Shown piece by piece: positions 1-20,000 of a stretch of DNA of 20,000 nucleotides. The notes below the pieces were generated by a model. The model was not told the DNA's origin. It searched no databases and saw only the letters and a list, made by a program, of their open reading frames with translations. Origin of the DNA: Euglena gracilis (Eukaryota); assembly GCA_039621445.1 (NCBI GenBank), contig CP154954.1, positions 10,984,670 to 11,004,669 of the forward strand, in the 5' to 3' direction. Numbering within the stretch: the stretch's first letter is position 1; the number at the start of each line of letters is the position of its first letter. The position numbers and the translations under genes are program-made.

Positions 1-3
1 TAG

Positions 4-1962
4 CGGGTTTCACACCGAAATTCGGCAGTATGCATTGCCGATGATGCGCCAAATGTTCCAGAGTCGCGTTTTCATAACCCGGCTCTGGGTGCACATGCAC
101 CACCACCACCCGTGTCCCGAGTGTCACAATCCGCGATTCCGCGAATTGTGCCACCATTGGCCTTGTCCACAACCCAAACCCAGTTTTCGGATGAATCTCC
201 CATTACGGGAACCGAATTCGCGGAAAACATGGCGATTCTGCCAAGTCTCCACCAAGAAATCCATCATTCCATGCTTGTGCGTGGAATGAGCCAAACCCGT
301 ACACCGGGAGTGGGTCACATGTTGCATGCGCGACATACCCCCACACCGGAGAGTCTCCCTATTACGGGTGACCAACAGGGTTTGCGACCGGATTTCCGGT
401 ACCAGGATTCACCTTCACCAGAAATTTCGCGATTCCGACAAGAATCCGGAAAGGATACGCTTGGTGCTCGAGCGTACCCAGGCCCGAATCCACGGAATAC
501 CACCGAGGGCCAACGGGTTTTTCAGAAAGACTTCAAGGGCACCATCGCAATCGCGAACAAGGTGAAACCCCAGTGGGATGGTGATCCAACCACATGGAGA
601 CAGTTTTTCCGGGACTAGGAGTACTACTGGGCATTGAAAGGGACAACCCAGGACACAAACCCGGAGGTGATCAAGATGGAATTCATCGATTGCCTCCCTA
701 GGGATGAAAAGGAGCGCGCGCGACAACTCGTCATTCGCTACCGCGTTTCCTTTGATGACCTGGTGGAGCAATATGCTTCCACCAGTTCAAGTTTGGTCGC
801 TAGGATTACCCTGGAGACCAAGTGGCGGCAATGCGCCCCACCCGATCGCAAGTGGAAGTCCATTGACCTTTGGTATGCCAAATGGTTAGGACTTGCCGCT
901 GAAGTGGATGAACTCAGTGAAAAGCAAATGCGCGAACAGTTCGACGCTGTTCTCATGCATTTCACGCCTAGCCTCATCAAGGATATCCATCGTGAGGAGT
1001 TGGCGGGTAATGCAATGACTCTTGACCAACGCTGGAACTACGTTTCCAAGCAATTGAAGCTATCACAGCTTCTTGGTCAGATTCAATCCGCGTATACCGC
1101 ACACCCAACCGCTGGATTACCGGCTGGTTCGGTGAACGCAGTGCAAAAATCACCGGTTCCACCCGCTTCACCCACCACGGGATCGAAAACGCGATAGCCG
1201 CGTTCTTCGGACCAAGCCACGGATAAAGTGTGCTTTTTGTGCAACAAATCGGGACATATGTCTCGGGAATGTCCTAATCCTGAAGCGCGAAAGCGTATTC
1301 AGAGTCCGCGAGGCTCGACCTCATCACGAGGTTCGGGTTCCTCCGCGTTTTCACGCCAATCGGGCAATTCACGGTCATCGGGTCCCCGTTCCGGTGGTAT
1401 TAGCCCCCGGATCCCGTTCCGCGATGAGCGGAAACACGGTACCCCTCGGGGTAGGTCACCCGATGCCCCGGCCAAGACGCGTGATTCTCATCGCGAGACA
1501 TCGCGATCGCGTTCGCGAAGCGGATCATCTTCTTCGCGATCCTCATCGGGAAAACCCCGATACACCGGTCATGGTCGACGGGACACCCGGTCACCACGAC
1601 GGTCTGACGGGAAATCGGGAAACCGATCCCCCCGTTACCAAGAATCGCGACCCAAATCTCGGTGTTCGCTTTGTGGATCGAGTGATCACCACTCATCCAA
1701 ATGTCCGCGTTCTCGTTCTCCCCGCCCTGGCCAACGTCATCGCGGTATGAATCGCGGTGACAAGGGTCACTCCTCCAACCGCCATAAAGTCGGTTTCAAG
1801 ATATCTTGTTTGGAGGATGACACCCCGGCTTCGGGCAGGGAGGGGGATGAGACCACGGATACCGATTTCGACGAGGCCCGCATGGCGGTGCGCACGTTGA
1901 AATCCGTTTATACCTCTAAAAGGCCCATAGCCGGCTATTCGGCCGGTTCGGACCTGGAGTAG
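4..1962 (+). pseudogene. gag: Gag with two CCHC zinc knuckles, interrupted by in-frame stops; true start probably upstream of the window
   Basis: ORFs 112-618, 634-1197 and 1228-1962 share frame +1, which is open from base 4 and broken only by TAG at 616 and 1195. Gag-like WDGDPTTWRQFFRD*EYYW. CX2CX4HX4C knuckles CFLCNKSGHMSREC (1231-1272) and CSLCGSSDHHSSKC (1663-1704). Confidence 0.85.
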
Positions 1963-2045
1963 GGGAGCCCGAGGTCCGAGGGCACGGACCTCTGGGCTGA
2001 TGAACAGATGGAGGTAGGACCTGATCAACCCTGCCCCCCCTGCCC
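1960..2045 (+). promoter_or_regulatory. Candidate gag-pol stop-codon readthrough signal (UAG plus stem-loop/pseudoknot)
   Basis: TAG 1960-1962, GGG spacer, then AGCCC-GAGGTCCG (1966-1978) pairing with CGGACCTC-T-GGGCT (1985-1998). Loop GGGCA is complementary to TGCCC at 2032-2036 or 2041-2045. pol continues in the same frame. Confidence 0.6.
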
Positions 2046-2199
2046 ATCTGCCTTTCTGGTCGGTACCCGGAAAATTTTCGGGTCCCCCACCCCCCACTCC
2101 AACTTTCCGCTCGGAATGTTGTGCAAAGTAGGAAAGGGTTCATGGGAAAGCTGGCAAGAAAATGTATTTTCGCCAGGCCCTTCACTTTGCTTACCCCCC

Positions 2200-2559
2200 A
2201 TGGAACTTTTGGTCCAAGCGGAAATCAAAATACAAAATTTTTGTGCAAAAGTCAAAATTCTCATTGACACTGGTTGTCGCATTGCACTACTTTTTCGGTT
2301 TGGGTTGATACCAACCCCCCTCTTGGTGAAAGCCAAGAAGCCGATCAAAATTACGACGGCTGACAACACCCCTATGTGCGGTGGTGACTTGGGATGCTTT
2401 TTGGACATTGTCCTACCCCTCATCCCCAAGCACCACTCACACCCCCCCCAACCGCAAAATTTTCCGGATACCTGGGGATATGAATCCGGAATCCATGGTT
2501 CTGACGTAATTCTGGGATACCCCTTTTTACGTCAGCACCGGCTGGTAGTGGATTGCCAC
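2200..2559 (+). other. Retropepsin aspartic protease domain
   Basis: ILIDTGC (DTG at 2266-2274), flap-like ITTADN, and C-terminal DVILGYPFL (2503-2529). Confidence 0.9.
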
Positions 2560-3408
2560 TCCCACGGTTTGCGCACATCACCATTCTCCTCATTGCCCCC
2601 CAAACCCTCATCACCTGTGGCGTCAACCGCGATAGCCACCAATTTTTCCACACCGTTTTCGAAAACTTTCACCCCGTTACCAACCACACCAACCAACGTT
2701 TTCCACACCGGGTGTACCGAGAAAGTTCACCCCCTGCCCATTGACACACCAACGTCCGTTCCCCATGAGGCAGGGCAAGCGAGTAGCGGTACCCCCCTCG
2801 TTCCACTGGGTTACAAGACGAAAGCTCAAAGGCCTGAAGTTATAACGGTGTCGAGTAGTCGCCCAGCTGCACTAATACCCCGTTTTCCACCAGATGTATC
2901 GCTTTCAGATACATCTGTATACCCCCCAGCAGCTTCAAAAGCGCATCCCAACTTTTACACACACCCCCACCAGACCAACATGCGCGACCAGGACCACTAC
3001 TCCGACACTACCTTCCAATGTGTGCACTGAAGGAGAATTTCCGCCCAGCCAGATTTCGATTGTGGATGTCTAGTCCAAACACCAACACTAATCCCGATTT
3101 CGCGTAACCATACACTTGGTTGCGGATCGCAATGCGCGACCGTACATCAAGTGCTCCAACAACGAGGTATTGCCTTGTTGTTTGGGACCGCGAAATCCGT
3201 GTCACACACCTCCCCCACCTCCATCTGGCATGATATGGACTGGGTATGTACCCATCCAACCCATCAACCCTTGGGAATGCCCCTTGGGAGTGTGGATGAC
3301 ACACCCTTGACCTATGTTTGCGGATCCCTGAATTGCGTTACCGCTCTTCAACCCGCGAACCAGGTCGACACCTACGCGATGCGCGTATGGAACGCATTTA
3401 ATTTTGGT

Positions 3409-3813
3409 CAATACCGTATTTTGGAGGAATGGTTCTCCAAAATCGCGGCTTTGGCTGATTCCTTCGATTTGCCGTTGGAAATTGATGCGTTCTCATCAAA
3501 AGCGCATGCGCGCTTGTCGCGATATTGGTCGCGACATACCAACGCATTCCGTAAAATTTGGGGTGATACGGTGCTATGGATGCACCCTCCCCCAAAACTT
3601 ATTTCGGATGTGGTGGAGAAAATCCTCCGCGATGAAGCGCGAGGAGCTCTCTTCATACTGGTCAATCCGAATGCGGATTGGTTTCACCAACTATCCTATG
3701 TGTGTTTTCATTGGTGGGATTTACCCGCTGATGTACCACTATTTGAGGATTTTTGTGGTATATTATTACCACCTGTCAAAGAAATCATTTTTCGCGTTTG
3801 TTTCTTCGACGCA
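3409..3813 (+). other. DIRS/phage Dam-like N6-adenine DNA methyltransferase domain within Pol
   Basis: IDAFSSKAHARLSRYWS...NAFRKIW...LWMHPPPKLISDVVEKILRDEARGALFILVNPNADWFHQL follows the pattern I recognise from DIRS MT domains (IDLFAS..N.....F.S...DAF...W.....x-P-P..LI..V+.K+..E....IL+.P.W....WF..L). Motif IV equivalent HPPP at 3583-3594. Confidence 0.8.
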
Positions 3814-4014
3814 TTCGGAATATCCGATTTGCGTGTGCCAAGATACCTTGGTACGGATGGGGATGCCACACCCTCAACGCAGATTTCTGCGGTCATTGAG
3901 AGTGCGGACCAACATCCCAAGTCTTCTGATTATTGTTCGCGAATTGCTCGCGAATTCCATGGTGTACTGGATAACCCAGTTTACGCCTGCGACATCGACC
4001 CCGCGATTCGCGGT

Positions 4015-4970
4015 CCGTTCGGTGTTTGCAAAATCGAGCTCAAGGATGGCGCTAAACCTATGCACCGGAAATTCTTCCGTTGCTCGGGTGAATGCGAACA
4101 GGCTCTCAACGAGATGATTGAGAAGCTCATCCAGCGGAAGTGGATTATCCCTTCCAAGAGCGAGTGGACATCACAAGCTTTTGTGGTGCCCAAACCCGCT
4201 GACCAGTCTGGTCAGAAGAAGTGGAGACTGGTGCTGGATTACCGGTACCTGAACTCCCAAACAAAGGATGACCCCTTCCCGTTACCGCTGATCGAGGATT
4301 TGATCACAAAACAATCGGATAACCGGTTGTGGTCAATCTTTGATCTGGAAGACGGTTTCCATCAGATGCATTTGCATCCTGATTCGCAACCGTACACGGC
4401 ATTCGTGACATCCAAGGGTGTGTACCAATGGACGGTACTCCCCATGGGTGTTAAGAATGGCCCAGCCATGTTTCAACGCATGATCCAGTGGGTTTTGCGC
4501 GATTTACCGTTTGCTATGGTGTACATCGATGATGTACTGGTGGGAACCCAACCGCCATCCGCGAAATCGGGCGAGGATATCCTCGACCCGCATTATCGCG
4601 ATGTGCGCGCGGTATTATCCGCGTTCTAAAAGCATGTGCTTTTTGTGAAGGGTTCCAAAATGCACCTGTTTCGCAAAATTATTAAGTTTTGCGGACACAT
4701 CCTGAGCAACGGGCAGCGTAAAGCCGCACGCAGTAAGATGGAGGCCATTAAGAAATGGACTCCTGAGGTCATTAAGACCTTAACGCATTTAAAGGGATTT
4801 TTGGGATTAGCCCAGTACTACGCGATTTACATGAAAGATTTCGCGAAAATCGCGGTACCCCTAACCCGACAACTCAAAAATCGGACACCCGATAACGCAA
4901 AAGTCATTTGGGATGACCAAATGCGCGAGGCCTTGAATAAAATCAAGGACTTGCTCCTCGAGAACGTGGT
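4015..4970 (+). other. Ty3/Gypsy reverse transcriptase domain (with thumb/connection)
   Basis: WRLVLDYRYLN, FPLPLIEDL, FDLEDGFHQM, TAFVT, LPMGVKNGPAMFQR, YIDD (4522-4533), KFCGHIL, LKGFLGLAQYY. One in-frame TAA at 4627. Confidence 0.97.
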
Positions 4971-4998
4971 TCTCGATATCGCGGATCCATACAAACCG

Positions 4999-5465
4999 TA
5001 TGTCCTGGAGGTCGACAGCAGCGATTACGCTGTTGGCGGGGTTCTTAGCCAGCATAATGCGGCGAATGAACTCCGACCTGTGGCTTTCTTTAGCAGGAAG
5101 CTACAGGGCGACAACGGGAAGCGTTCACGGATTATCAGCTCTGCTGCAGAAAGCAGTCCGCAATTCCGCGCCCGAGTAGCTGCGCAAGGGAGGCCGACAA
5201 GGGATAGGACAGGGTTAAATGGGCATTCGCGAAAAGGAGAACTATGCCATTGTTGTTAATTCTCAGAAAGAAAGTCGCAGGGATAGCCAGCCAGCCTGGC
5301 CAGATACTGCGTGGTGGCGGATCCCATGGAGCCTTCACACTGGTTCCCGAGGACCTGAACAAGGCCATGTCATCAGTGGGCAGAAGATGCCGATAGCATG
5401 AGTTCTTGAGCCAGTTTAACCTGGTGGTAGTTTATACCCCAGGTCATACGCAAAAAGTTGCCCCC
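4999..5465 (+). other. RNase H domain, frame-disrupted
   Basis: LEVDSSDYAVGGVLSQ (D at 5014), RPVAFFSRKL, out-of-frame REKENYAIV and R*HEFLSQFNLVVVYTPG..QKVA. The usual ADALSR motif appears deleted at ~5462. Confidence 0.85.
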
Positions 5466-5701
5466 TGGTATTATCCTGGGAACCCGGATGAGGGTGATGC
5501 GACTTTTCATGGCAGCCATGAGGCTGACCAGTTCGCACGTCGATCCGACGCTGCGGACAACATGCTCGATTCACTACCGGTTTCCCGGGTGTATCGCAGC
5601 ATCGCCATTTCACCATTGCGTGGAAGGCGCCGGCGTGGACGCACTGCCGGACCCCGTCGCATTACGCGTACGGAAACTCCTACCCCCCTATTTTTCCGCG
5701 A

Positions 5702-6961
5702 ATGGGTTATTCGCGTGACCCTATATATAGTACCATTGTGAATAGACGTAGTAATGGTGAATCCATAGAGAGTTACTCTCTATCACCATTGCGGCTTATT
5801 TTCCGGAATGATTCTGGTTATAAATATTGTATACCCCAAGACCTGGTTGATGATGTGATTTTGAGCTATCACAACCATGGTCACCCTGGGGCCCCCAAAC
5901 TTCTTTCACTAGTGGGTCGCAGATATTGCACAACCCTGAGTGAAAAAGAATTATATTCGCGCTGTTTGCGAATTTCGCAACGGTGCCAAAATTGTCAGGC
6001 TGTAAAACCGCGCAGAGGTACCCCCCCTGGTACGATGGACTTTTTCCCCGTACCACCTGACATTTTTACGTCCCTCTGCATGGATTTTCTCGAACTTGAA
6101 CCTTGCAAAGGATCAGATGACAAAATTTACGATTACGTTTTTGTTGTCGTCTGTCGGCTGAGTGGGTACATAGTAGCCATTCCATGCCGGAAAGCAGGGT
6201 TGACAGCCCAAATTTTGGCATCCATATTCCTGGAGAAATGCATCTGCTTAATGGGTTTACCGAACGAAATCGTGAGTGATCAAGATCACTTGATCTCTTC
6301 GCGGTTTTTCACAACTTTGTGCGGTTTACTCGGCATTGAGCAGCATTTTTCCATTATATACCGCCCGAAAGGCAATGGTAGGGCCGAGGCAGCCGTGAAA
6401 TCCGTTGTCAATATGCTTCGCCTTTCACTGGCTGACTCGGGTAAGAATTGGTTATCCGTTCTTCATTGTATTTTTTACATCAATACCTTGCCAGGGTTGG
6501 TATTACCACACTCACCGTACAAAATTGTTTTCGGACGTGACCCTCCGGCCATAGGGGATATCCCCTCGGAGAGACCCGCCCGAAGTAGCGTCAGCTGTGA
6601 AACGTGGTTTGCAGAAGTGGAATCACTCCGCTCTGCAGTCCAATCACGTATCACAGAAATTCATTCCAACAAACGGAAATCGTTTTTGCAGAACTTCAAC
6701 ACACCTGTGTATAGTCCAGGTGACCGCGTGTGGGTACGGAATAACCGCACCCGCATGCAATCTTCCAAGCTAGATCCTCTTTGGCTCGGCCCATGCGAAA
6801 TTTTGGAGAGGTTAGGTAGTAGCGGGCGATATAAAGTTGCCTTGCCCAACGGGATTGAGGACGTCCATATGGACGACTTCAAACCGTACCTAAGCCCCCC
6901 AGACGGAAAAGCTATCCCCTGCCTATATTTCAAGCCCCGTTCCAGATTACCTGAAACGGAC
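5702..6961 (+). other. DDE integrase with HHCC zinc motif and GPY/F-like module
   Basis: HNHGHPG...[36 protein letters not shown]. Confidence 0.95.
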
Positions 6962-7110
6962 GACTTTGTGGTCGATAAGATAATAGACCACAAGGTCGAC
7001 AGGGGTGTGCACTACTGGAAAGTTCGCTGGAAAGGGTATGGGCCAGAGGAGGACACTTGGGAGCCAGCATCCAGTTTTGTTGGATATGTCCAACAGGATT
7101 GGAAGCTGTG
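6962..7110 (+). other. C-terminal chromodomain of integrase
   Basis: [10 protein letters not shown]...[18 protein letters not shown], with all three aromatic-cage positions (F, W, Y) present. Confidence 0.95.
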
Positions 7111-7207
7111 GAACAAGCGCAATAACATAGACATAAACATAAACACTTTCTGAAACGATTTCGTTTTGGAGAATGCGTGTGTTTTATGTGAATGTTTCGC
7201 GTTTATA

Positions 7208-7281
7208 CCCCCCCCTGCACTTCATTATTTCTCTATCTTTCTCGCAGAGTTTTGATTAAGATAGAAGCCTTGCTTTTTCAG
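7208..7281 (+). promoter_or_regulatory. Candidate 3' splice acceptor(s) for the downstream ORF
   Basis: Long pyrimidine tract ending ...tttctctatctttctcgcAG (AG 7246-7247) and a second, ccttgctttttcAG (7280-7281). The first ATG downstream of either is 7349. Confidence 0.55.
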
Positions 7282-7348
7282 TGCTCTCGCACTCAAAGCG
7301 ACTGACAACAAGGTTACCCTTAGTTGTCGTCGTCGTTCGGGTAGCATC

Positions 7349-10300
7349 ATGCTGCCTGGGCGCGGACCTGGACCAGGTCCACCATGGCCGCAGCCTTCTG
7401 GCGCGCCATACCCCCAGTACCCTCAGTATGCTGAGGCCCCGATTCCGGGTGCCCCACATGCTGAGAGGGTTTCAGCCCCGGTATTCGCCGCGGCTACCAG
7501 CAGCCGGTCCGCATATGCGGTACCAGATCCATCTGCCGTCCAGCAGCCGGCACCTCAGCCACCAGCGCAGCGCAGATCGCGCCTGCCCCCGTATGCGGGA
7601 GAGATGATCTTCCGCACTACGGAGACGTTGGAGCGGGCGATGCGTATGTGCGCACACCCCCCAACGGAGCCCTTTATGCAAGCCCTTTGGGATGCATACT
7701 GTGCTCAGTTGTTGGTGGTAGCCAACACCCCTGTGGCTCAGTGGTGTCCCTGCGGTCAAGCCCTGATGACAGGGAGACGGTATTTCTCGTCGGCATCCGA
7801 TTCCGGATTCGAGCCGGGTGAGACTATGATGGACCTGGGCGTGTATGTGCCGCCCATGCTGCAAACGCAGACGCCGGTGGGATCCCACACCGTGCATATG
7901 CGTGAGCACACGCCCCCACCGGTAGGTGAGGCTGTGCATGTCCCACCTGGGATGACGAGAAGTTTTGCTCGCCCGCCCTCGCCGCAGCGAATGCCGCCGC
8001 GCGAGCCGCCAGCGGAGCAATTTGTCTCGCGGTACGCGACGCACGCGGATTCCCCGCGCGGCGCACGCGTGCTCCCAGCCGGACAGTCGGACGTGCCCTC
8101 GGAGGCATACGTCCAACACATGTTCATGCACTGGATGCCACAGGCATCACCGGTCGTCCCTGTCCCGGGCGTTGAGCCACGGCGGCAAGTGGAGCCCATA
8201 GTGGTGGAGGATGAACCTCCCCGCCATGCTGCAACTCGACCGCCCAGTGCACCTCCTGTCCAACCCGGGGATGTCCCGCGTCGGCAGGACGCTCCCTACT
8301 ACCACATGGCACCTCCGGGAACCGAGCAGGATGAGCTTGCTCGGCATTTCCTGCAGGAGCCAGTATTCACGTCTGAAGAGCATCAGGCGAGGTATTACTC
8401 CTCGCTGGCCGCCCTTCAGGGCCGTGGATACACCCCGTACCATCCGTACCAACCGCAGCTGCGGGTGGCGACCCCGGTATTACCCGGTGAGCCCCCGGCA
8501 GGAGCGGCAGGATTACCTGCCACCCTGAAGCGCGATAGGGTTACGGAGAACCTTACCCCACAGCCCAGGCGACCCAGCCCACGGGACGCGGAAGGCGGTG
8601 TGGCAATGCAGGTGGAAGCCAGCCCGGATACCCCGGCTGGGCAACCACCGGCAGTGGCACAGGCAGCGATGAGCCGTCCTGTTGCCGCAATGCCACCGCC
8701 GATCCCTCCGGTATGGAAGGAGCCGCGACCCCCTACGCCGACATCAAGCCCACGCCAGGCTCCTAGCCAGCGCGCAGCCACGCCGTCACCGCGACGTGCA
8801 GCGGAACGGCAAGGTCCCTCCCCAGAGATGGAATGGGAAGGTACCGAACCGCCTCCTGCCGCACCGAGCGCCCGACCCTCTGGTATTCGCCAGACAGGGA
8901 AGGATAAAGGTAAGGCTGAGGGCAAAGTCAAGGGAGAAGGCAAAGGCGTGGCCGGCAAAGGTAAGGCTGAGGGCAAGGGTAAAGGTACAGCCCGTGAGGA
9001 GGAGGAAGAACCAGCAGAAGTCCTCTCGGACTTTGAGCAAATGCTCAGATTCAAGGAGGAGCTGGAGGACGAAGGCTGGCGAATGCAGCATGATTACCAT
9101 GTTGCAGGAAACCGCCCCGTCACCCCTCCGGAAGCAGTCATCGAGGTGGTATTACACCACACCGAGAACAGAGTCAGACAATTCCATTACGGAATTGACC
9201 TGTACGCCTTCGAAGGTGAAGGTGGCAGACCCTTGCTGGATGCCCAGCCGGGTTTCTGGGAACTCTGGTTTTGGCTGGGATACCCCTGCCAGAACTGGGG
9301 TCTCTTCAGCGACTCCACTGGCCGCAGTTACCTGCACCAGTTAGGATTTCGGGACCAGCATGTGTTGGCCCGAAGGCTGAAGGCAATCTTCGACTGTATT
9401 CACACAGTCGGGCCCCTCGGTGTGCAGTGGAAATACTACCCACTGAACCCCGACATCGAACGCCTGATCGAGGTGTTGTGGTGCAACAACCTCCAGGTGT
9501 GGCTGGTGAGCCATTACGGCTCCACCTTCCGCGTTAAGCGCGTTTCCCTGGCTTACCCACAGAGGTATGACCTCTGTTGTAAGTATTGCCGGCAGGAGTT
9601 TCCTGTCGACTTCTGGTGATTCGGCGTACGCGGAAGTCCTCCACCGCCTCGGGATAACCCGGGACTGGAGATGGGACGCCGCATGCTTATGCATGTGTGC
9701 CGCGACGCCCCGGATGTCCAGGGCAAAAGTCGCCGCGTCCATAAGCAGCGTATTTTTATGCTGCAACAGTTCTGGTGGCGAGCCTGAACGACCTATGTCA
9801 TGGAGGTGTATATACATCTCCGTGACCCCCAGGACGATAGGCCTGGTATGGAAAGCTTGCCACCAGACTACGGCGACCCCGTTGAGGGACCTCGTCGTCG
9901 TCGCGTTATCGCCGACCTGCGCCCCAACTGGCACCTGGCCGGGATAGACCTGGAGGAACATTTGAGGCGACAGTTTGGCGGTACCCTCGACAGGAAGGTA
10001 TTCCTCCAGCTGATGAATCACCCGAAGGCCATCCTCGACCTGGGTATGCCGATTCTGGCATGCGTGCAGGAGTTCGAGGACGGGTTTTTCGAGGTCTGGG
10101 AGGACACGCGTTACCGCAGCTTCCTGGGCCCGAACAGGCCTGCCAACGCTTGGGTGCAGCCATCATGGCCACCACCCTGGCCCAACAGCGCCAGTAGCAG
10201 TACGCTGGTCTTTTACAGGCTGGCGGATGCCCAGGGATGCCGATGGCACCCCGACGACCCTCGTTCGCCGGAGGATCTGCGCGCCTTCATCGCCCCAGAG

Positions 10301-12868
10301 GATGAACCTCTGGCGCGAAGGAGACGTGAGGCGTCAGTCGCTTCCACCACTGCGATTCCGCGGCGGGAGGAACGCGACCGCAGCCCCTCCGTCACCATAC
10401 TGGAGGCAGCGCCGCCGTCTCCGACAGGAACGGCTGTATCATTCGTCTCTGCCCCGCGAGCGGCAGGGGAACGATCGGTTTCCCCGGCCCCCGCGACGGC
10501 TCACGTCTGTCCACCGGTAGGTGGAGACCAGGAACTTCCTGAGGAGGAAGGTGAGAACGTGGAGGATATCCTCTACGCTGCTCTGCATGCTCCGGCACAG
10601 CCTAGGCCAGACACAGCACCCGCAGGGGATATACCTGTGGATGCTACGCCTGTTCCAACGGCTGAGCCTCCAGTCGAGGTGACTGGTATGGTCGTCGAGG
10701 ATATCCTCGAAGAACCTGCCAGTCCCACAGCACGCACCTCGTTAGGAGGCCGTGTGCTCGGCGCCGTGGTCACTGGCATTACTGCCGTGGCTGCTGCACT
10801 AACGCCACGAGGTGGAGGCGTAGCATCAAGCTCCGCCGCTGAGGTCGTGGAGACACCAGATGTCGGTGTCCCCACACCTCCGTCTCCGGCAGCAGTGCAA
10901 CCACCATCAGGGGATGAACCCCAGCCGACAGAGACATCTGTCGCACCGGCTACACCGGAGGATCAACCTCCCGTAGCACCTGCGCCAGCGGTTGTGGAGG
11001 ATCAACCTCCTAGACCGGATGTCGAAATGGAAGTGGAAGAAATACCCCCACGACCACCGACACCGCGCAGGGTCCCTGCCGTCCCGAGGACAATGGCAGA
11101 GTTTCTGGGAGTGCCAGCGCCTGTGGAAGCACCGATTCCGGTGACGACCACAGTGCCACGCCTCGTCGGAAAGGATGAACCTGCTCGGCGACGGCCGGCT
11201 GAACAACCCCAGGAACGAGTGCCGACCCCTCGGAGCGTCATGCGCGACCCAGCGGTCAGTATGCCCGCTTCGCCCAGACGGCAAACGTCTACTCCGGCAC
11301 CGTCGGCTCCTGATACCAGGAGTAAGCCGCAGGCGTCACCTCCTGATTCCGGGAGTGCGAAGCCGAAAGGAGGCAAACCGGGTGCTGCACCCTGTAAGCC
11401 CCCTTCCAAAGGCGGTGACGGGAAACCACCACCGAAAGGTGGCGCTGGAGGTCAGACTGGCGGACAGCCGAAAGGCCCTACGACAATGCACGACTATTCG
11501 GCCGTTGCATCGTCCGGGTACGGCCAGAGCAAACCGAAAGGTAAGGCTCGTGGTCGACAGGCCCAGTCTTCCGCCGGATCGACGGATGAGGAGCAGGACG
11601 AACCTGCTTCACCTCCTGTGTCTGCGGATGCCCAGCTCTGGACCCAGGATATCCTGACCAGACTCAGCACCGTCGAAGAGAGGACGAAGAAACTGGCTGC
11701 TATTAGGCACCAGAAAGGGTCACTGAATCGATGGATTCAGCCCCTCTTCGTCCGAGGAGAACCTTTCCACTATGCCCCGGAACATACCTGGACATTCTGG
11801 AACAGGCGCTTACCCAGAGTACTGGCACAGTACTTTGGCGAGGACTGCGTGTTGGATTTCCAGCACGGCACGTCCTTTGCCTGGACGTGCACCGTATGCC
11901 ACCATGTGCGGCATAACCAACCGCTTGTGCATGTGTGCAAGCGGCAGGTGCAACCCTCGTGGTTCCATCACAGGGCATATGTGCCGAACTGTGTGGCGCT
12001 CGTATGTGGCGAGTGCCTGAATGCCTGGAAGCACAGCTTGAACTACTCCTACAGTGAGAATGCTCACGACAGGGATATCCCTGCCTTGTGCATCAACTGT
12101 ATAGGAGGCAAGTTCGTGCAGACTGCTGATGGAGCAGTCACCACCATTGTCCCCCAGCACTGGGAGACACTGGAGAAGTGGAAGAAGGAGTACAAGCAGG
12201 TGGAAGGACGCCTGAAGCACTCCGACTTCAAAAAGGTAGAAAGCTACCGCCACACGGGAATGGCCCGTGACTTCCAGATCGACGCTGGGGCAATGCGCCT
12301 CGCCGTCGAGGAACACGCCAGGGTAAGAATGCCTTACCTCTGGACTGATGGCGACTGGGAGACACAGGTTTACCCCCTGTTCTCCAAGCGTCAGCATGGC
12401 GGATACGCCTTGCCACTGTGGCCTCCTGAAGAACACGACTTGGTGGACTTCAGAGGTTGGTTGGCGGCTGTATTACGGCCCCATACCGCAAGAGCTCGGA
12501 CAGCGAGGTGGATGTATGACATCAACTTCAAGCAGACCCCGGGGATGCCCCCGCAGGTGCCTGCGAATCACCCCCGGATGAATTACATCATCTGGCCGGT
12601 GATGCTGCCCAGAATTTTCTGGGAGCAGCTCCAACGGTATCTTCAGCATCATGCTGAACGTACCAGGGAGAAGCTGCCGGAAAATTGGATCAAGGACTGG
12701 GAGACCCCTTCCTTTGATGTCAACGATCCGGAGCTCAACACCATTCGGAGTGAATCAGCTCCGCCGCGTTCCCCACGCCAACTGGAGTTGGTTGAGGACC
12801 CATTAGGGGACCCCCAACACGACTACTGGCGTGAGGTCCGCGAACGTCCAGCCGATAAAGGCAGGTAA
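7349..12868 (+). pseudogene. Extra ORF of unknown function in the env position (~1839 codons, two in-frame TGA): Pro-rich disordered tracts, Trp/Cys-rich globular blocks, C-terminal 8-Cys zinc finger
   Basis: ORFs 7349-9619 and 9800-12868 are both frame +2. The gap translates FW*FGVRGSPPPPRDNPGLEMGRRMLMHVCRDAPDVQGKSRRVHKQRIFMLQQFWWRA*TTYVM, with stops only at 9617 and 9785. Could alternatively be two separate CDSs. Confidence 0.75.
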
Positions 12869-12902
12869 GGTGTCTGTCAGCGCCAATGCGGCGTCTTTCA
12901 GC

Positions 12903-12985
12903 ACCCTCGTCAGGTATTCGCCTGACACCCTGTTTGGGTATTCGCCCGAACAGCCCCTTTGAAGACCCTTTGCGGTATTCGCCGC
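12903..12985 (+). repeat. Three tandem hairpins with identical TATTCG loop
   Basis: GTCAGG-TATTCG-CCTGAC (12909-12926), CTGTTTGGG-TATTCG-CCCGAACAG (12930-12953), GCGG-TATTCG-CCGC (12972-12985). Each is preceded by or overlaps ACCCT. Confidence 0.85.
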
Positions 12986-13685
12986 TAGTAAGTTCCCACC
13001 GGGATGCTGCCATGTGCAGGATTCCGTGCGCATGCATGCACACCCCTCTCCGCTCTCCCCTCTCGCGGGCGTGCGACACGCAGCGCACAGGGCCGACGGC
13101 CCCTTTTCCTTTCTCTCTCTTTTCTTTTCGGCCGTTTGAGGCCTTAAGGCTGCCAGACAGCACAACTTTTCTGGCCTAAGCCAACCCCCCACTCCTCTCT
13201 ACTTTCCCCCCGCGGCAAATGCTGTCGCCGGCAGTTGGTTTTGTAGAGTAGGATTTCCTTTTGCGTGGTCAGGTTTGACTGGCCATGCGCCCTGCCCAGG
13301 TTTGACTGGTCAGAGGCCCCCTCCTTCCACACCCTCCCCATGGGTTTTCCTGGAATGCCCATGGACCCAACCCCAAGTGCCTTGGGCACACCCAAACTGG
13401 GTGGATGGGTTTGCTTGGCAAGGAAACCTGCCAGCCCCATTTTCCCCAGTGGGCTATAATATACTATACACCCATAAGCCACCGCAAAATAGGTGAAACC
13501 ATTTTGCGCGTTTTGGGCTTTTTGGGTCCCTCCCTTTCCGCCCCCCCCCCCTTTTTGAGTAGACCCTTGTGCGACGGAAAGGGCCCCTGTGGATGCGCCA
13601 GGGTGCACCTCCCACAGACCAGGTCTGTGTCCGAAATCCCTGTGGTCAGAATGCCTGGTCCAAAGGGGAAATCGGGCATAGCCCT

Positions 13686-13695
13686 GGGAGGGGGA
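13686..13695 (+). other. Polypurine tract (plus-strand primer)
   Basis: GGGAGGGGGA, followed by a 2-nt spacer and then TGTAC. Confidence 0.65.
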
Positions 13696-13697
13696 TG

Positions 13698-14002
13698 TGT
13701 ACCAGGCGTATGCTTCTGTCCCCCCCCCGTTGAGGAAGTTAGGATGGAAGCAGATCCTATTAGGATTTCCTAATGGGTGCCCCCTCTCTCTCCACAGGTG
13801 GTATTCTGTTTGTCTTTCCTTTTCTCCGGACCGGACTTGGTTATCCAGTCCGTCCTCCCTGCATTGCTCCGTGCTTTGCTTCTTGGGAAGTGGGAAAAGG
13901 GTTTTCACTGTTACTCTGATTTTCAGTTCCCAAGTAGGTGCGCCAAGGCGAAAGCGAAGGCTTTTGGGAATTGGGAAAGGGGAATTGGGAATCAGACGTA
14001 CA
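13698..14002 (+). repeat. Candidate 3' LTR (305 bp)
   Basis: Starts TGTAC 2 nt after the PPT and ends GTACA (5-bp terminal inverted repeat, TG...CA). Composition becomes AT-rich afterwards. No partner LTR in the window. Confidence 0.6.
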
Positions 14003-16513
14003 CTTGTATACCCGAATCAAAAAAATTCGGCATATTGCCAAAAAGATCATATTGAGGTGTACAACCGCAGAATTGTGCCAGGCTGCTGCCAATTCACAGA
14101 ACAACTGTGGTTGTTGTGGCTTATACCACTTTGAAAAACCGCAAATGAACTTTGAATGCACATAAAAGGATGGAACATTGTTCAAGTGCAGTGAAATTTA
14201 TCACTCTGTACCTTTCAGTACAATCAGAGGCATGATACCTCCAAAAGCAAAGTGTGTGTATGAAAAATTGTGGGTATCCCCATATTGCGCACAAGAAAAA
14301 AGGAACTATCACAAAAAATACACGGAAGTCAACCACTTCTATGATGGTGGTCTGGCAGGCATGTTCTGTGATAAGCGTGAACTCAATCGAGTTTTTTTTT
14401 TCGACAAGTTGGCCATATAGCCGTCACTGCAGTGGGTGGTGGCATATACCACCAAAAATTACTAAAAATCTCTATTTTTTTGCATAATTGCAAAGAAGCA
14501 CTACAACTATGCCTTTTGGCGTTTTACCGTTTGCGGTGAAGCTTTCAACTGAATAATCGACCTGTTGGTCAACAACGCATGCAATCTGTTACAGAGAATA
14601 TGCAGTTTTTCTGCACGCGTTAGGTTCATAAACTACATTTTTGCACCAATTGGTACTACAAGGGCTAGGAAAAGAACAAAAGCACATAGTGCCGATTGTG
14701 AAACAAGCCGATTGGCTTAAGAGCATTGGTACCATATCGGTATGCTACCACTATGTGGTTTTGGACTGTCCCATTAGGACTAACATCTCACCTAGAACGG
14801 TGACACTGCACACAAAAATCTTGTACGGCTATAAGTATTCCGCGTGAAAAATTCTGAAGGAATCTGAAAAATATTCACGTCGTGAGAGAGCCATAGGCTC
14901 AAAAATTGCACCACGATGGTGGAACGTAAGATATTTCGCCGAATAGCGATTATGGATTCATAAATTTCAAACTGGGAGTTGATTCTCCTGCGCACAAACT
15001 TCTCTATGAGAAAAATAACGGTATGTGCACACTTAAGTCATCTTGATCGATGGCCGAGAAAATGCATTGCGGTTCAAGCATTTTAACTGTCCAACAGAAT
15101 TGGGTGGCTATCGCCACAAATGATGCGGTAACGATAAAAGTGTGGATATCACCACTGAAAAATGAAAAATTTGCATAACAACAAATAAATGAAACATTCT
15201 TCGCATTAGAGGTATCCCACAAAAATTATAGTTTTTTGAAATGCAGCGCATACTGCATCACATCACTAGTATAATGAGCTATCCTCGCGTCAACAAAAAA
15301 AAGTTGAAATTGCACATGTACGCATATTGCGCACACGTGGTCAAAATCACATATTGTGACACTGAGTTCAGACCAGTAGGTTACAAACGACAAAAATGCA
15401 TGAGAAACGGGGGAACTGCACAAAACGACTAATCATCAATGAATATGGTGCTGTGACACGCACCATTTGAGGATTCGCTCGGAAATTTTGAACAGATTGC
15501 GAAATATTCGATGAACACGTGGCAATTGATCCGCATTCAGAAAATTTGCGGATGATCTGCACACGGAATCCTAAATGTGGGTCAAAAAAAGCTGGATTTC
15601 ACCATTTCTGAGGTATGGTTCTTATAAACCTTGCAGAATGACACCATTGGTGTTGCAAATGATGACCATTGGGTCCTCCGAATTATATCGGTAAGGGGAT
15701 CCCACTGAATGAAGCGGGGGGGGGGGGCAAGAATGCCGTTGGTGTGGTAAGCAGGAAAAAATACTGCAAATATGACAAAATCTCATCATTAATGACTATG
15801 CCACTGAGAAATACTGACTTTCATCGGATTTTTAGGGAAATCCCTATCAGGATTTAGGGCAGAAATGCAGATTCTGCGTCGAGAGTTGCATTTTTGTAAC
15901 CAAAAGTGCAACTTTGTTGCATTTTGAGTCATTTAAGACGGAAAATTTGTCAAGTGCACATAGTGCTTGCTGAGAGTGTCCAATTACACTGCATGTTTGC
16001 TTTTGTATAGATTTTGGGATTTGGGTGACTCATAACACCACATCACCCAAAAATATCGCAAAAAACCAAAATACACCTCAAAATACAAGTAAAACATGTC
16101 TATGACATGTTGAACAAACGAAAAATTGCCATTATCAGCATATCGCTTTACATTCCACTCTGGCATAGTGCCTCATGGTGACTTCCATTAGTGATATGAG
16201 TGCCAGAATAGGGAAAAATAACCAAAAAAATTGCAGAAAATAAATGATTTAAATCAAAATTTGCACATAAGTGCTCCTAAAAATCATTCTAGTGAGTCGA
16301 AATGACTCCAAATTGTGGGCTATAGCCCTCTGAACTGTACGAGGCCTTATAGCCCATACAGAAGGGGTAATGGGCAGAATGCTGCCAAAGGTACTAAAAA
16401 ATGGCCATTAGCCAATCTGTTAACCAAAGGTAATTAGCCATCAGAAACGATGTGGGGAACAGTATAGAAGCCTTTCAGGCTGATTTGCAAGTCTGGTACA
16501 CGATCGTACAAGA

Positions 16514-16525
16514 TCCGGCCTAAAA
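16514..16525. repeat. Target-site duplication, left copy
   Basis: TCCGGCCTAAAA matches 18713-18724 at 11/12 positions. Confidence 0.75.
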
Positions 16526-16796
16526 GGACAACTCCCGGTGGTGGGGCGAACCGAATCCACCGACCAGTGGCACAGCCTACTGGATTTGAAGGTCCGCTGG
16601 CGGTTATGATAATTTACAGCTTGGGTATAGGACGGCGGGTGGAAAATGGGCTCGGCCCACCTTCAATACGTTGCGCGAGGATAGAGGGGCGAGGGGGAGC
16701 GGGGAGCTGAAGGGAACGGCAGTGCTGGAGTATAGAGGGGTCGGCGGCAGGGCGGCGGTACGTGGCTTGACGGGGGGAGTGGCGGTGGGTCGTGGT

Positions 16797-16847
16797 TGTG
16801 TGTGTGTGTGTGTGTGTGCTTTGTGGGTTGTTGTTATTGTTGTTGTT
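16797..16847. repeat. (TG)11 microsatellite plus imperfect (GTT)n tract
   Basis: Directly visible: 16797-16818 and ~16827-16847, immediately 3' of the non-LTR ORF stop. Confidence 0.95.
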
Positions 16848-18710
16848 TTATCGGAGAATGTGCTTGGGTTGCAGGAGATGGAAGACTTCGCGTAATAGGG
16901 CGATTGCGACTTTCTGGTAAATATCTGCCTCCTTTAATTCTCGTTCCGCCCCCTGTTGCCAGGACGAGGCGCGTTTCGCCACGCGGCTCAGGGTTTTGGC
17001 TGTCTCGGGCCCCATGCCCGCCCACGTTCCCAGGGCGAAGGGCGTGAAGCCCCAGCCTGCTTGCTGGCATGGGATGTTGTACTTCTGCTTTTTGGCCTCC
17101 TCCCTTCTCTTCAGGAAGGATCTCCACCGTTCGCGGGTGGCAGTGTGTTCAGTCGCCTGCCATCCGTTGCAGACGGTGACATCCAGCGCTGTCGGCTTCC
17201 CGTCAGACCAGCAGTCTAGGAGGAGATCGGCCGGGCGGAGGTGGCTATCTCGGGCCGTTGGCAGGGAAACCTCCTTCTGCACCCGCTGTCCGCTGTTGGA
17301 CAAGGTTTGGAACAGTGCGTCCTGAACAGCGTTGTGGCGGGTGGCAAAGTTATTCCTGCGACAGCAAAGGAGGTGGTCACCTTCCTTGTCCAGGGGCTGG
17401 TTGCATCCCGTGCATGGTTGGCTGACGTCGTTCAGCACCAGGAGACCCAGCCACCACTTCAACCCCAAGGTGTACTCTTCGCTGTAGAAAGTGGTGTGGG
17501 AGTTGTTTGAGGGGGTTGCTGCCATCCAACCATGCCCGAAACCTGTGGCCTGTTCGAGGAGGCGGTTCTTGTCCCGGGGCCGCGCCTGGTCCACCAGGTC
17601 ATCCATCGTCTTCTTGCCCAACTCGTGAGTCCACCACTGGTGCGCTACCTGAGCGTCGGTGACGGACGTGATGGTGGATGCGGCCTTCTCGATTTTGGCG
17701 GCGGCAACCTCCCACGCCGTCTGTGTGGTGTCCGTAGACGCTGGGTGGTCAACTGGGATGCCCAGGACGGTGATGCCTTCCCCTGGGGTCCAAGGGACGA
17801 CTTGCATCCTCTCACAACTCGGCGTACTCCTGGCTCTCGGGCCCCACATGACGCACTTCTGCAGGTTGAGGCCGAGCCCTATTCGATGAGACTCTTGCAT
17901 CAAGAAACGAATGCAGTGCTCAATCCGGTCTGGGGTCCCGACCAGCAAGCCGTCGTCCAAGTACCAGCTGTTCCACAGCAACTGACCATCTTTGGTGATC
18001 TGTTCCAGTAGAGGCTGTAGCGCGAGAGCGAACCCTATGGGGCCCAATGGGCAGCCCTGGTGGGTGCCTCTCTGTGACAGGATCGAGCGACCACCACAGA
18101 ACAAGGGAACGTGCCCACTGTACGCGAATCGCAGAAAATTGAACAAGCTGGGGGTGCGCGTTTCAGCCTCCGTCAGGATCGCCCCTCGGTCCACCGTGTT
18201 GAACGCACTGGAGAAGTCCACCTGGAGAGAAACCCAGGGCGATGTGTCCGCCAGCTGAATGACCAGGTGTTACATACCTAATGCGACGGCCTCAGCCGCG
18301 TTTCGTACCCCAACCCCAACTTGGGTAGGGGCGAGGGTTGCGACCTAGGATCTGGCGTTTGGTGTCTGGAGCAAGGCTTTCCCCACCAAGCGACGGATGG
18401 TTTCCCCAACCGCCACCGGACGTACCCCGTTATCCTTTTTGCGGAGCGGCGTTAGGTTCGCACAGCACCAGGCCGCGGCGTGGTGGGGCGGTAGCTGGCC
18501 GTCCACCAAGGCTTGAGTCAGCAGTGCGAGGGCAGTGATCAGCCTTGCTCCCCGACCTGGTCTCCGCAGGCAGTCTTGGAGGTGGCCTGGTCGCAACCCA
18601 GATGGCGCCGGCGCCGATCCCCGTGGGAAGCGACGGATGGCTTCCTTCAATCTGTCCTCCCAGTCCGGGGTGTGGTTCTCGGGGAAAGGGCGGACGTGAC
18701 GCGGCAGGCG
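16848..18710 (-). pseudogene. RT / zinc finger / restriction-like endonuclease ORF, truncated, two nonsense codons, internal deletion
   Basis: One frame: GSAPAPSGLR, GVRPVAVGETIRRLVGK, QVGVG, VDFSSAFNTVDR, GTHQGCPLGP, YLDD (17952-17963), CTGC-x9-HLLCC, RHNAV, RPADLL..ALDVTV..KKQKY. Stops TAG 18345-18347 and TAA 18270-18272. Confidence 0.92.
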
Positions 18711-18712
18711 AT

Positions 18713-18724
18713 TCTGGCCTAAAA
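18713..18724. repeat. Target-site duplication, right copy
   Basis: TCTGGCCTAAAA lies exactly where the RT reading frame and GC-rich composition end. Confidence 0.75.
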
Positions 18725-19169
18725 TTTGGCTTTTGGCCGGATTGGCTGGGCTTAATTCAATTTTTCACGATCTCCTCAAATAAGAGTACCGTGCAGAGTT
18801 ACAGCGACCTGTTAGCACCGCTGGACGGCTCATCGAACGAGCTTTCGAATGAGGGGTAACATGGCCTATCGGCCAGCTACGGGTGCTGAGATACTTCATT
18901 GATCTTTTGCCTGTGTGAGTGAGCTTTTGCTATAAGCTTCCATAATTTATTCTAGAAAGAGAACTTTTGGTTCCTATCTCATAGGCACTAATACATGCAG
19001 TCAAAACCTCATGGTACGAGGTGCCAGAAATTTTGAAGCTTTTGTGGTGGTTTTGGGCTATGCCAAAGTGACACATATGCAAATGTGCATGAAAAAAGCC
19101 TATTTGGCCTGTTTTGGCCAATTCAGCCACTTTCAGCCATGTAATATGGCTTTTTGTGCCATTTTTTGA

Positions 19170-19283
19170 GGTCCTATGGACTTTTCACTTCATAATATAG
19201 AAAATGTGGATTTGTGGACCTTTGGTCCTTTTGGTCCTTGCATTTTGTGCAAATTGGTCCTATGGACCCATGGACCACGGACC
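19170..19283. repeat. Cluster of eight GGWCC motifs in both orientations
   Basis: GGTCC/GGACC at 19170, 19216, 19224, 19233, 19256, 19264, 19272, 19279. Confidence 0.7.
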
Positions 19284-19853
19284 ACGTGGGTAATGGCCAA
19301 TAGGCCTTGCACATCATAGGGTGTATTGGTCACATAGACCTAAAGGCCAAGTGGTTAAGTCCACAAGAGTGCATGTTTGAATGAATTTTTTTCCTTTTTT
19401 TGGGGGGGGGCAACTATGTTGCAGATTTTCTCAAGGAATTCAACTTATTTCCCTATCGGGATTCACTTCTGCAATAGGAAAAAGGCCATTTTGTTCACCA
19501 AATAGCTGTTCTTCACAAAGCTGTGCAAGTTCACGGGAAAAATGCAGTATTTGCAATGTATCCCAAAAACTTATCACACACCTTGTGTTTTTGCAAATAA
19601 CTTTGAATGATCAAAACACCTTTGGTGTTCGTCAACTTGACCAACAAGTTCGTGGTCAAAGAAGGATGGATGGCTACTTTTGTTGCTTAAGTAAACCAAA
19701 TCTGCATTTTGAGCATGTGGTTTGCAAACCAACAACAAAAGTGCCATTGTGAAATATGTACACAAACATCTTTGGGACTTATTCCCAAAAGAAGATGGTT
19801 GGGTTGGGCAGACAGACACCCATTTGTAAGATATACGCAATTGTGCGAGATTT

Positions 19854-19993
19854 GCGCTATGCACGGGTGGGGGTGGGGGGGCACATCTTGTGGGGGGGGG
19901 GCTGTTTGCGGGCTGCGCAATATGCGCGGTGGAGGGAGGTGTGCGCTATGCGCGGCGTGCAAAGCAATATGCACGCGATGAGCGCTATGCGCG
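19854..19993. repeat. Degenerate repeat with core TATGCRCG and G-rich spacers, probably continuing past the window
   Basis: gcgctatgcacg, gcaatatgcgcg, gcgctatgcgcg, gcaatatgcacg and gcgctatgcgcg within ~140 bp. Confidence 0.65.
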
Positions 19994-20000
19994 TGGAGAG

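Follow-up and report, generated by a model that had tools for sequence, protein, structure and literature searches.

The 10-mer GGTATTCGCC occurs five times, at 7480, 8882, 12913, 12937 and 12974, in a 20,000-nucleotide stretch of the Euglena gracilis genome (assembly GCA_039621445.1, contig CP154954.1, positions 10,984,670 to 11,004,669 of the forward strand; this whole stretch is called the window, and its first letter is position 1). All five copies lie on the + strand, and each forms the apex of a hairpin that joins an invariant loop to a stem of its own. The host of these hairpins is a Ty3/gypsy chromovirus-like long terminal repeat (LTR) retrotransposon, which occupies 1..14006 of the + strand and is truncated at the 5' edge of the window. 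The 10-mer hairpins are real, non-random and strand-specific, and the observation of recurrent sense-strand hairpins is statistically solid. They are not a private motif: AU-loop hairpins pervade the whole element, and the 10-mer hairpins form the top class among them.

Recurrent UAUUCG hairpins with variable stems

The five positions and their common strand had been reported in a first-pass annotation made from the sequence, and both are borne out: dinucleotide shuffles give an expectation of 0.03 occurrences, and 0/200 shuffles reach five. The annotation's further statement that each copy carries a different complementary stem also holds (H1 to H5, Table 1). Two of these hairpins are located in open reading frame (ORF) 2, H1 lying 125 nucleotides (nt) past its ATG; the 10-mer is translated there as P-V-F-A in H1 and as G-I-R-Q in H2, which agrees with the earlier claim that the two coding copies are read in different codon phases. 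The local fold of H2 has z = -2.31. The remaining three copies form a 3' cluster (12903..12987, + strand) of three tandem ACCCU plus GG-UAUUCG-CC hairpins, which starts 39 nt past the stop of ORF3. An ACCCT word likewise stands, as had been noted, no more than 10 nt 5' of four of the five 10-mers (8875, 12903, 12927 and 12965).

Two additional TATTCG hairpins have their closing pair swapped relative to the 10-mer (H6 and H7, with TATTCG at 1936 and 11495). H6 had been described as a sixth hairpin just before the gag stop and is found there, its 3' end 12 nt upstream of the gag TAG (1960-1962), with a fold of -18.2 kcal/mol (z = -2.12). H7 is a seventh, imperfect hairpin beyond the six previously listed. 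When GG-UAUUCG-CC is folded with ViennaRNA, the apex takes the form of a U.G-closed AUUC tetraloop, and this makes it the consensus member of an 'AUNN-loop' class. A hairpin with a different loop, AAUGC, precedes the 3' cluster at 12880-12894.

Pairing around the loop exceeds the background. There are 12 TATTCG sites in the window, 11 on the + strand and 1 on the - strand, and 7 of the 12 are flanked by at least 3 contiguous pairs, compared with a background probability of 0.062 per site. At the five 10-mers, pairing beyond GG/CC totals 17 base pairs (bp), for which P = 0.00023 with five random sites (200,000 draws). The 132-nt stretch after the ORF3 stop that holds the 3' cluster has a four-hairpin fold of -51.3 kcal/mol, compared with -33.3 +/- 3.6 kcal/mol for its shuffles (z = -4.96, 0/200), while fold z-scores of individual hairpins range from -1.07 to -4.19. 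As the window is rich in short hairpins overall, the stems are less exceptional than the invariant 10-mer.

The claim that the stems co-vary is substantiated among paralogous copies. When the seven TATTCG hairpins of this copy of the element were aligned on the loop and a 7-bp helix was scored, standard pairs filled 83.7% of stem cells versus 53.3% after partner shuffling (0/500), and six of the seven helix pairs varied on both sides. The covariation score was 0.796, compared with 0.209 in the shuffled alignments (0/500) and 0.04-0.22 when partners were slid by 1-3 columns. A covariance model trained on the seven hairpins scores its own members at 22.5-29.2 bits by construction (28.5 bits for H6 and 22.5 bits for H7), and its next match in the window reaches 15.1 bits.

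The wider AU-loop hairpin class

The weaker matches of the covariance model lead to hairpins with the loops UAUUGG, UAUUAG and UAUUACU. The word GGTATT occurs 16 times on the + strand, all within the element, and 5 times on the - strand; most of the 16 + strand sites open a loop, and at 12 of them at least 4 contiguous pairs including the GG are present. TATT was counted at loop starts, with loops of 4-8 nt closed by at least 5 bp, and the counts are 17/46 on the + strand of the element, 2/18 on its - strand, 0/19 on the + strand of the flank (14007-20000) and 3/32 on the - strand of the flank. Dinucleotide shuffles give a mean of 1.15 (maximum 5, n = 300), and shifting the sites by 10-40 nt gives a mean of 2.4 (maximum 7). 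The 19 coding TATT-loop hairpins use all codon phases (5, 8 and 6), in support of the earlier proposal that conservation acts at the nucleotide level.

Beyond UAUU, the recurrent + strand loops are nearly all AT-initial: ATTC (12), ATAT (9), ATTT (7), ATGC (5) and ATTA (5), followed by ATGT (5), ATTAC (5), AATGC (5) and ATCAC (4). In a census of the + strand of the element (stems of at least 6 bp with G.U allowed, loops of 3-8 nt, 60 shuffles), 293 hairpins were observed against a shuffle mean of 177.5 (maximum 210). Loops starting with AT account for 63 of them (mean 10.5, maximum 17) and loops ending with AT for 20 (mean 10.0, maximum 18). Nearly half of the total excess thus consists of AT-start loops, mostly tetraloops, and the other first dinucleotides are raised at most about 2-fold. 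The 63 AU-start hairpins occupy every 1-kb bin of the 14-kb element and span gag, pol, integrase, ORF2, ORF3, the 3' untranslated region and the LTR. In the coding part, 57 AT-start hairpins are present, versus 8.9 after codon permutation within ORFs (maximum 15, n = 60); together with the use of all three codon phases, this indicates that the class is not a codon artefact. A constraint from codon usage was considered and dropped: neither GTA (14% of Val codons) nor ATT (33% of Ile codons) is rare enough in ORF2 and ORF3 to argue for one. The six-copy motif of the first-pass annotation therefore stands as a set of real hairpins but not as a private one, its copies being the best-conserved members of this larger class.

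Other repeated structures were observed beside the AU-start hairpins. A second family with an invariant loop and variable stems comprises five AAUGC hairpins on the + strand (loop starts 12292, 12328, 12885, 13218 and 13650), which have five different stems of 5-7 bp and represent 5 of the 26 AATGC words on the + strand; no hairpin with this loop is present on the - strand. Four AUCAC-loop hairpins, at 1062, 1323, 1685 and 6622, behave in the same manner. The palindrome core GGATATCC is present six times (4574-4585, 6555-6566, 10563-10574, 10698-10709, 11646-11657 and 12072-12083), three copies having the form GAGGATATCCTC and coding for E-D-I-L, and GGATTTCC-type hairpins recur at 391, 11855 and 13764. 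GATATC is the site of the Dam-family methyltransferase M.EcoRV.

Strand specificity

The seven TATTCG hairpins inside the element all share one orientation. A total of 46 stems carry a single interruption, which is G.T in 15, A.C in 7 and another mismatch in 24, compared with 1.5, 2.1 and 7.5 in shuffles; the excess of G.T, which is legal in + strand RNA, over A.C is modest. The seven same-way hairpins, the 63 loops starting with AT versus 20 ending with it, and the 15 G.T versus 7 A.C interruptions together favour an RNA or single-strand reading over a duplex-DNA site. The annotation had left both an RNA element and a DNA site as explanations; the structured, strand-specific alternative is the one that these data favour, and the duplex-DNA site is disfavoured by them.

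Copies of the element and unrelated DNA

Contigs from four public runs (one DNA run and three labelled as RNA) were mapped onto positions 1-14500 of the window. The element family is hugely multicopy, as 120,721 contigs from the single DNA run, X1, map to it, and it is also contained in a leaf-litter RNA-seq metatranscriptome. The family extends 5' beyond the window, and its 3' end lies near 14006, marked by a collapse in depth and by loose contig ends. In-frame stops interrupt frame 1, from gag to RNase H, in this copy; three of them have another letter in most of the mapped contigs, and this copy is slightly decayed. Additionally, 85 letters (5121-5205) are skipped by contigs in all four runs, by one contig in each; in the DNA run the skip accounts for a minority of the depth, in the three RNA-labelled runs for the majority. 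It coincides with the frame break between pol and integrase (RNase H to integrase), and its ends are not GT..AG. A single contig of run X1 links 7278 to 13071, a rare variant without ORF2, ORF3 and the five 10-mer hairpins.

The copy differences examined were the 40 best-supported of 2,212, of which 38 lie inside the element. Of the 38, two fall in loops of the 63 AU-loop hairpins and four in their arms, the arms making up 6.7% of the element; two of the four arm differences convert G.U to A-U. The five 10-mer hairpins contain none of these 40 best-supported differences, which is not proof of identity. Only one sibling protein, the fragment P0003, was recovered, in the shorter-protein search; it is 96% identical over residues 29-395 of ORF2 and keeps the residues encoded by H1, and a Leu-to-Pro change in it implies that G.U becomes G-C in the hairpin at 8393. 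The ORF2 protein search at near lengths gave no match. Taken together, the copy differences and P0003 may be regarded as weak hints.

Searches with the ORF3 C-terminus in the metagenome, viral and genome contig collections, and with the element reverse transcriptase (RT) in the viral contig collection, gave no relative. Two tandem 10-mers were present in the public collections only in unrelated prokaryotic, phage or tandem-repeat DNA, with at least 119 loci in the metagenome contigs, 30 in the viral contigs and at least 120 in the genome contigs, and 269 such loci served as a control. At least 3 further pairs are present at 65 of the 640 10-mer sites in these control loci. Run on 706 kb drawn from 100 of these loci, the covariance model gave a single match at or above 22.5 bits, the score of the weakest hairpin in the window. 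The 10-mer thus occurs elsewhere, but its placement on a stem is not a general property of the word.

The host element

The domain content of the element is that of a chromovirus, with zf-CCHC, RVT_1, RT_RNaseH_2, Integrase_H2C2, rve, SH3_Tf2-1 and Chromo all scoring above their Pfam cut-offs (Table 1). A Dam-like region shares one ORF with RT, and its score lies below the Pfam threshold.

Table 1. Positions of the hairpins and coding features of the element in the window
Feature	Position	Strand, frame	Description
H1	7474-7495	+	AGCC-C-CGG UAUUCG CCG-C-GGCU; 3 + 4 bp around a C.C mismatch
H2	8876-8899 (5-bp core 8879-8894)	+	(ACCC)UCUGG UAUUCG CCAGA(CAGGG); 3-bp extension past a 2-nt bulge
H3	12909-12926	+	6 bp; 3' cluster
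H4	12930-12953	+	9 bp including one U.G; 3' cluster
H5	12972-12985	+	4 bp; 3' cluster
H6	1929-1948	+	AGCCGGC-UAUUCG-GCCGGUU; 7 bp (one G.U), C-G closing pair
H7	~11486-11509	+	CGAC UAUUCG GCCG; one A.C mismatch, within a longer AUGCA/UGCAU stem; in ORF3
GG-UAUU class, example	3158..3182	+	AACAACGAGG UAUUG CCUUGUUGUU; 10 bp
GG-UAUU class, other loop starts	1398, 3523, 3761, 4613, 4680, 5469, 6501, 7781, 8393, 8478	+	
GG-UAUU class, further loop starts	9150, 9397, 9751, 9999, 11701, 12471, 13758, 13802	+	
gag		+, frame 1	Two CCHC knuckles; zf-CCHC above Pfam cut-off
Dam-like region		+, frame 1	Upstream of RT; Pfam Dam 21.7 bits, E = 1.7e-4 (cut-off 28.1)
RT		+, frame 1	RVT_1 83.6 bits; same ORF as the Dam-like region
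RNase H		+, frame 1	RT_RNaseH_2 above cut-off
Integrase and chromodomain	5528-7153	+, frame 2	Integrase_H2C2, rve, SH3_Tf2-1 and Chromo above cut-offs
ORF2	7265-9619	+, frame 2	ATG at 7349; no Pfam family
ORF3	9788-12868	+, frame 2	ATG at 9800, stop 12866-12868; no Pfam family

There is no direct repeat of at least 40 nt in the window, which places the 5' LTR outside it and means that the LTR limits are inferred only. A purine run, GGGAGGGGGA, lies at 13686-13695 and is followed by TGTGTAC, and the element ends with ...GTACAC near 14003; positions 13686-14006 could accordingly represent a polypurine tract and an LTR of about 310 bp with inverted termini, the boundaries being tentative without a 5' LTR in the window. 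A TATA-like CTATAATATA at 13455 is situated upstream of the purine run. A degenerate tandem copy downstream of the LTR was excluded by blastn, which found no match at E <= 1e-3.

Several further structures accompany the coding regions. The C-terminus of Gag (~1228-1960, + strand) contains a long Arg/Ser-rich stretch between the two CCHC knuckles that resembles the RS domain of SR proteins. The gag TAG is in frame with pol and is followed, 4 nt on, by a 13-bp hairpin, AGCCCGAGGUCCG...CGGACCUC-U-GGGCU, which extends to 1998 (-25.2 kcal/mol, z = -3.31); this layout resembles the stop-codon readthrough signals of gammaretroviruses. The start codons of ORF2 and ORF3 both lie within the strongest hairpins of the element: the former in the loop that caps a 12-13 bp stem at 7334-7363 (-25.1 kcal/mol, z = -3.56) and the latter in the 5' arm of a 13-bp stem at 9797-9826 (-21.2 kcal/mol, z = -3.86). 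Close to where the chromodomain ORF ends, positions 7070-7103 form a hairpin of 15 bp with z = -7.42.

The accessory proteins offer no lead to a reader of the hairpins. The C-terminus of ORF3 (11750-12865, + strand) forms a Cys/His-rich domain, with CTVCH...C..C...C.NC followed by PGMPPQ..NHP..N..IWP, and has 16 distant relatives in a library of 1.84 billion proteins. Its AlphaFold model is mediocre (pLDDT, the predicted local distance difference test, 62) and has no fold match in the PDB at E <= 0.001. In the ESM Atlas, ORF3 has weak, RING-like leads only (best score 0.85), and ORF2 has none.

Possible readers of the hairpins

The hairpins are supported as a structured, strand-specific cis element. 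In the mechanism tentatively preferred here, the GGTATTCGCC sites would act as stem-loops of the sense-strand RNA of the retrotransposon, each with an invariant apical module of two G-C pairs around UAUUCG, a stem whose sequence is free provided that it pairs, and, in all but one of the five copies, an unpaired ACCCU immediately 5' of it. Together with the degenerate AU-loop hairpins they may serve as multivalent docking sites for one RNA-binding protein, which would recognize each loop by its 5' side. High-affinity nucleation would then take place at the consensus sites of the 3' cluster, and the degenerate hairpins would bind more weakly. The preferred candidate for this protein would be the element's own Gag/nucleocapsid (NC), with its two CCHC knuckles, and the hairpin family would mark full-length element RNA for capture and particle assembly, as dispersed packaging signals of single-stranded RNA (ssRNA) viruses do. 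Capture by Gag/NC is favoured because dispersed stem-loops with a shared loop motif, few of them consensus and many degenerate, match the architecture of packaging-signal-mediated assembly.

Several points weigh against this reading. Naming Gag/NC as the reader is a guess. Retroviral and Ty packaging signals are usually found in the 5' leader or in gag, and the consensus copies here cluster in the 3' part, which would be common to any subgenomic ORF2/ORF3 RNA. Nucleocapsids of the CCHC type prefer exposed G-containing motifs, and a U-rich UAUU or AU loop is not an obvious target for them. Two of the four arm differences between copies break the loop-closing pair. Watson-Crick stems of at least 5 bp are in excess window-wide, with 197 versus 74.6 in the element and 85 versus 32.7 in the flank (about 2.6 times the shuffles), so part of the signal is generic, and claims on single stems need copy-level evidence. 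The A.C-interrupted stems also exceed their shuffles (7 versus 2.1), as expected if some inverted repeats exist at the DNA level. The flank itself encodes another RT on the - strand (16848-18221, RVT_1 42.1 bits), without significant similarity to the element RT, and on this sense strand AU-start loops number 18 versus 4.8 in shuffles (maximum 11); the + strand of the flank shows no enrichment (8 versus 6.2). The flank is partly AT-rich, with a stretch of 40% GC at 14-16.8 kb, and local composition may inflate the former comparison. A shared host reader, or a mutational process common to both, would fit the sense-strand enrichment in the flank better than an element-specific Gag would, and the enrichment also weakens the idea of a reader specific to the accessory proteins.

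Two unrelated retroelements converging on one reader is what would be seen if the hairpins were sites for a host RNA-binding factor involved in the nuclear export, stability or translation of the intronless element RNA. Such sites, many weak copies plus a strong 3' cluster, might be likened to retroviral constitutive transport or RNA stability elements, and the location of the consensus cluster in the 3' untranslated region, where a long region could be protected from decay, and of H6 close to the gag stop would suit them. This explanation is nevertheless rather unlikely, as H1 and H2, like most of the wider family, lie at a distance from stop codons, and Rfam 15, which includes the constitutive transport element and the histone 3' stem-loop among its curated RNA families, yields 0 matches at gathering score on either strand of the whole window. 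Known transport elements are long stems with internal loops, not simple hairpins, and no host factor is known to read AU at the 5' edge of a loop. Doubtful to a similar degree is a by-product without a specific reader, generated by strand-oriented replication mutation (template switching that perfects quasi-palindromes) or by selection for compact RNA, with the 10-mer spread by local duplication. The window-wide stem excess and the A.C-interrupted stems would follow from it, and H3 to H5, which are in tandem and share ACCCT and the 10-mer, could be a triplication. These sites may be breakpoints, since one contig from run X16 fits from precisely 12913 onwards, where a 10-mer starts, and run X1 has a joint within a loop, at 12978. 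A mutational process leaves unexplained, however, an invariant 10-nt apex on five unrelated stems and the ACCCT at the unlinked H2, and the 6-fold excess is specific to AT-start loops, other dinucleotides being raised about 2-fold. Furthermore, more than 50 hairpins persist in conserved coding domains without disrupting them, and the five 10-mer hairpins are free of the 40 best-supported differences (of 2,212).

The putative Dam-like methyltransferase encoded upstream of RT provides another candidate, as the AU-loop hairpins could be its built-in substrates. It would methylate the adenine of a (G/U)-A-U on the 5' margin of the loop, exposed beside the stem in RNA or in single-stranded cDNA. 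On insertion the element would thereby already bear N6-methyladenine (6mA) at ApT, pre-marked for 6mA maintenance by the host and propagated as an 'active chromatin' mark; if true, this would be a cis-encoded epigenetic camouflage with the GG-UAUUCG-CC cluster as its strongest sites. An A-T dinucleotide beside the stem is indeed common to the whole hairpin class, and METTL16 acting on MAT2A is a precedent for an N6-adenine methyltransferase that reads repeated invariant-loop hairpins. The preprint on DAM-LTRs (bioRxiv 10.64898/2026.05.21.726589) describes these elements as enriched in 6mA at ApT and eukaryotic DAMs as lacking part of the target-recognition region and inactive on duplex DNA in E. 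coli, for which its authors suggest a non-duplex substrate. Even so, this role is quite improbable: the Dam match is below the Pfam cut-off (21.7 versus 28.1 bits), the unrelated flank, in which no Dam domain is seen, is similarly enriched, AT is self-complementary and does not by itself explain the strand asymmetry, and the 10-mer contains neither GATC nor another Dam-type site. The invariance of the 10-mer and the Cys/His-rich domain of ORF3 with its 16 distant relatives would also accommodate a duplex-DNA site for the integrase, the chromodomain, an accessory protein or a transcription factor, with incidental inverted repeats. This is very unlikely given the single orientation of all copies, flanks that pair far above chance (P = 0.00023; 83.7% versus 53.3%), the use of G.U pairs and the absence of any hint of a DNA-binding fold or family in the accessory proteins in Pfam and PDB fold searches. 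Lastly, the loops might pair with another RNA, either the 5' leader outside the window or a tRNA, whose T-loop CGAAU is complementary to AUUCG, an arrangement comparable to the bipartite primer-binding site of yeast Ty3. The match is just 5 nt long, only AU is common to the wider family, and CGAATA is absent from the + strand of the element, which renders such pairing highly improbable.

Comparison with known systems

An open literature search, with subscription papers and supplements outside its scope, returned no description of such hairpins in LTR retrotransposons, and the loop word UAUUCG appeared, among the matches listed, in incidental sequence uses only. Likenesses to the histone stem-loop, the tRNA T-arm, U1A, MS2 and TTP (a UAUU half-site) were set aside, as none fits both loop length and sequence. 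The gammaretroviral encapsidation double hairpin consists of two adjacent hairpins with GACG tetraloops, located in the part of the 5' leader that separates the primer-binding site from gag. Like this pair, the hairpins described here are adjacent in a retroelement RNA and combine invariant loops with variable stems. Unlike the gammaretroviral Psi, the cluster lies past the stop of the last ORF and carries a UAUUCG loop, and there are three consensus copies in the cluster plus dozens of dispersed hairpins instead of a pair.

In the METTL16/MAT2A system, several hairpins of a 3' untranslated region share an invariant loop, which is read by an N6-adenine methyltransferase. The loop recognized by METTL16, UACAGAGAA, differs from the loop here, and METTL16 is host-encoded and belongs to a family unrelated to the Dam-like domain of the element. 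The element itself, with its sub-threshold Dam match, may be comparable to DAM-LTRs, which are described as Ty3/gypsy-like LTR elements with a Dam-like domain, RT and integrase, and a chromodomain in some clades; a term search of the main text gave neither RNA stem-loops nor accessory ORFs (bioRxiv 10.64898/2026.05.21.726589). Should the Dam-like enzyme or a host factor read the hairpins, DAM-LTR elements would gain the substrate or cofactor logic that is still missing for them.

The closest resemblance is to the dispersed packaging signals of ssRNA viruses, and the hairpins may on this analogy be viewed as cis-acting stem-loops of the retroelement or viral kind. In packaging-signal-mediated assembly, many dispersed stem-loops share a recognition motif in the loop, with affinities that vary around a consensus (PMC6281560; see also PMC7793301). 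As in MS2, satellite tobacco necrosis virus (STNV), picornaviruses and the hepatitis B virus (HBV) pregenome, the stem-loops here are spread across coding and non-coding RNA, with free stems and an apical motif. The 63 AU-start hairpins of at least 6 bp and the seven TATTCG hairpins correspond to the dispersed stem-loops, and the motif is graded, from GG-UAUUCG-CC (5) through GG-UAUU-N (16 GGTATT sites) to AU-NN loops (63), on stems that co-vary. The systems differ in that an LTR retrotransposon Gag/NC would take the place of an icosahedral coat protein, in that the candidate motif here is an AU opening the loop, or UAUUCG in the best copies, and in that an unrelated neighbouring retroelement is similarly enriched. 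If Gag does read the hairpins, no LTR retrotransposon before this one would have been shown to rely on numerous dispersed loop-motif signals in place of a single leader Psi, and the packaging-signal model would extend to Gag-type capsids, an extension only speculated on in the review PMC6281560. The motif is short, invariant and, in a family with more than 100,000 contigs in one run, very abundant, which makes it directly testable whichever reader applies.

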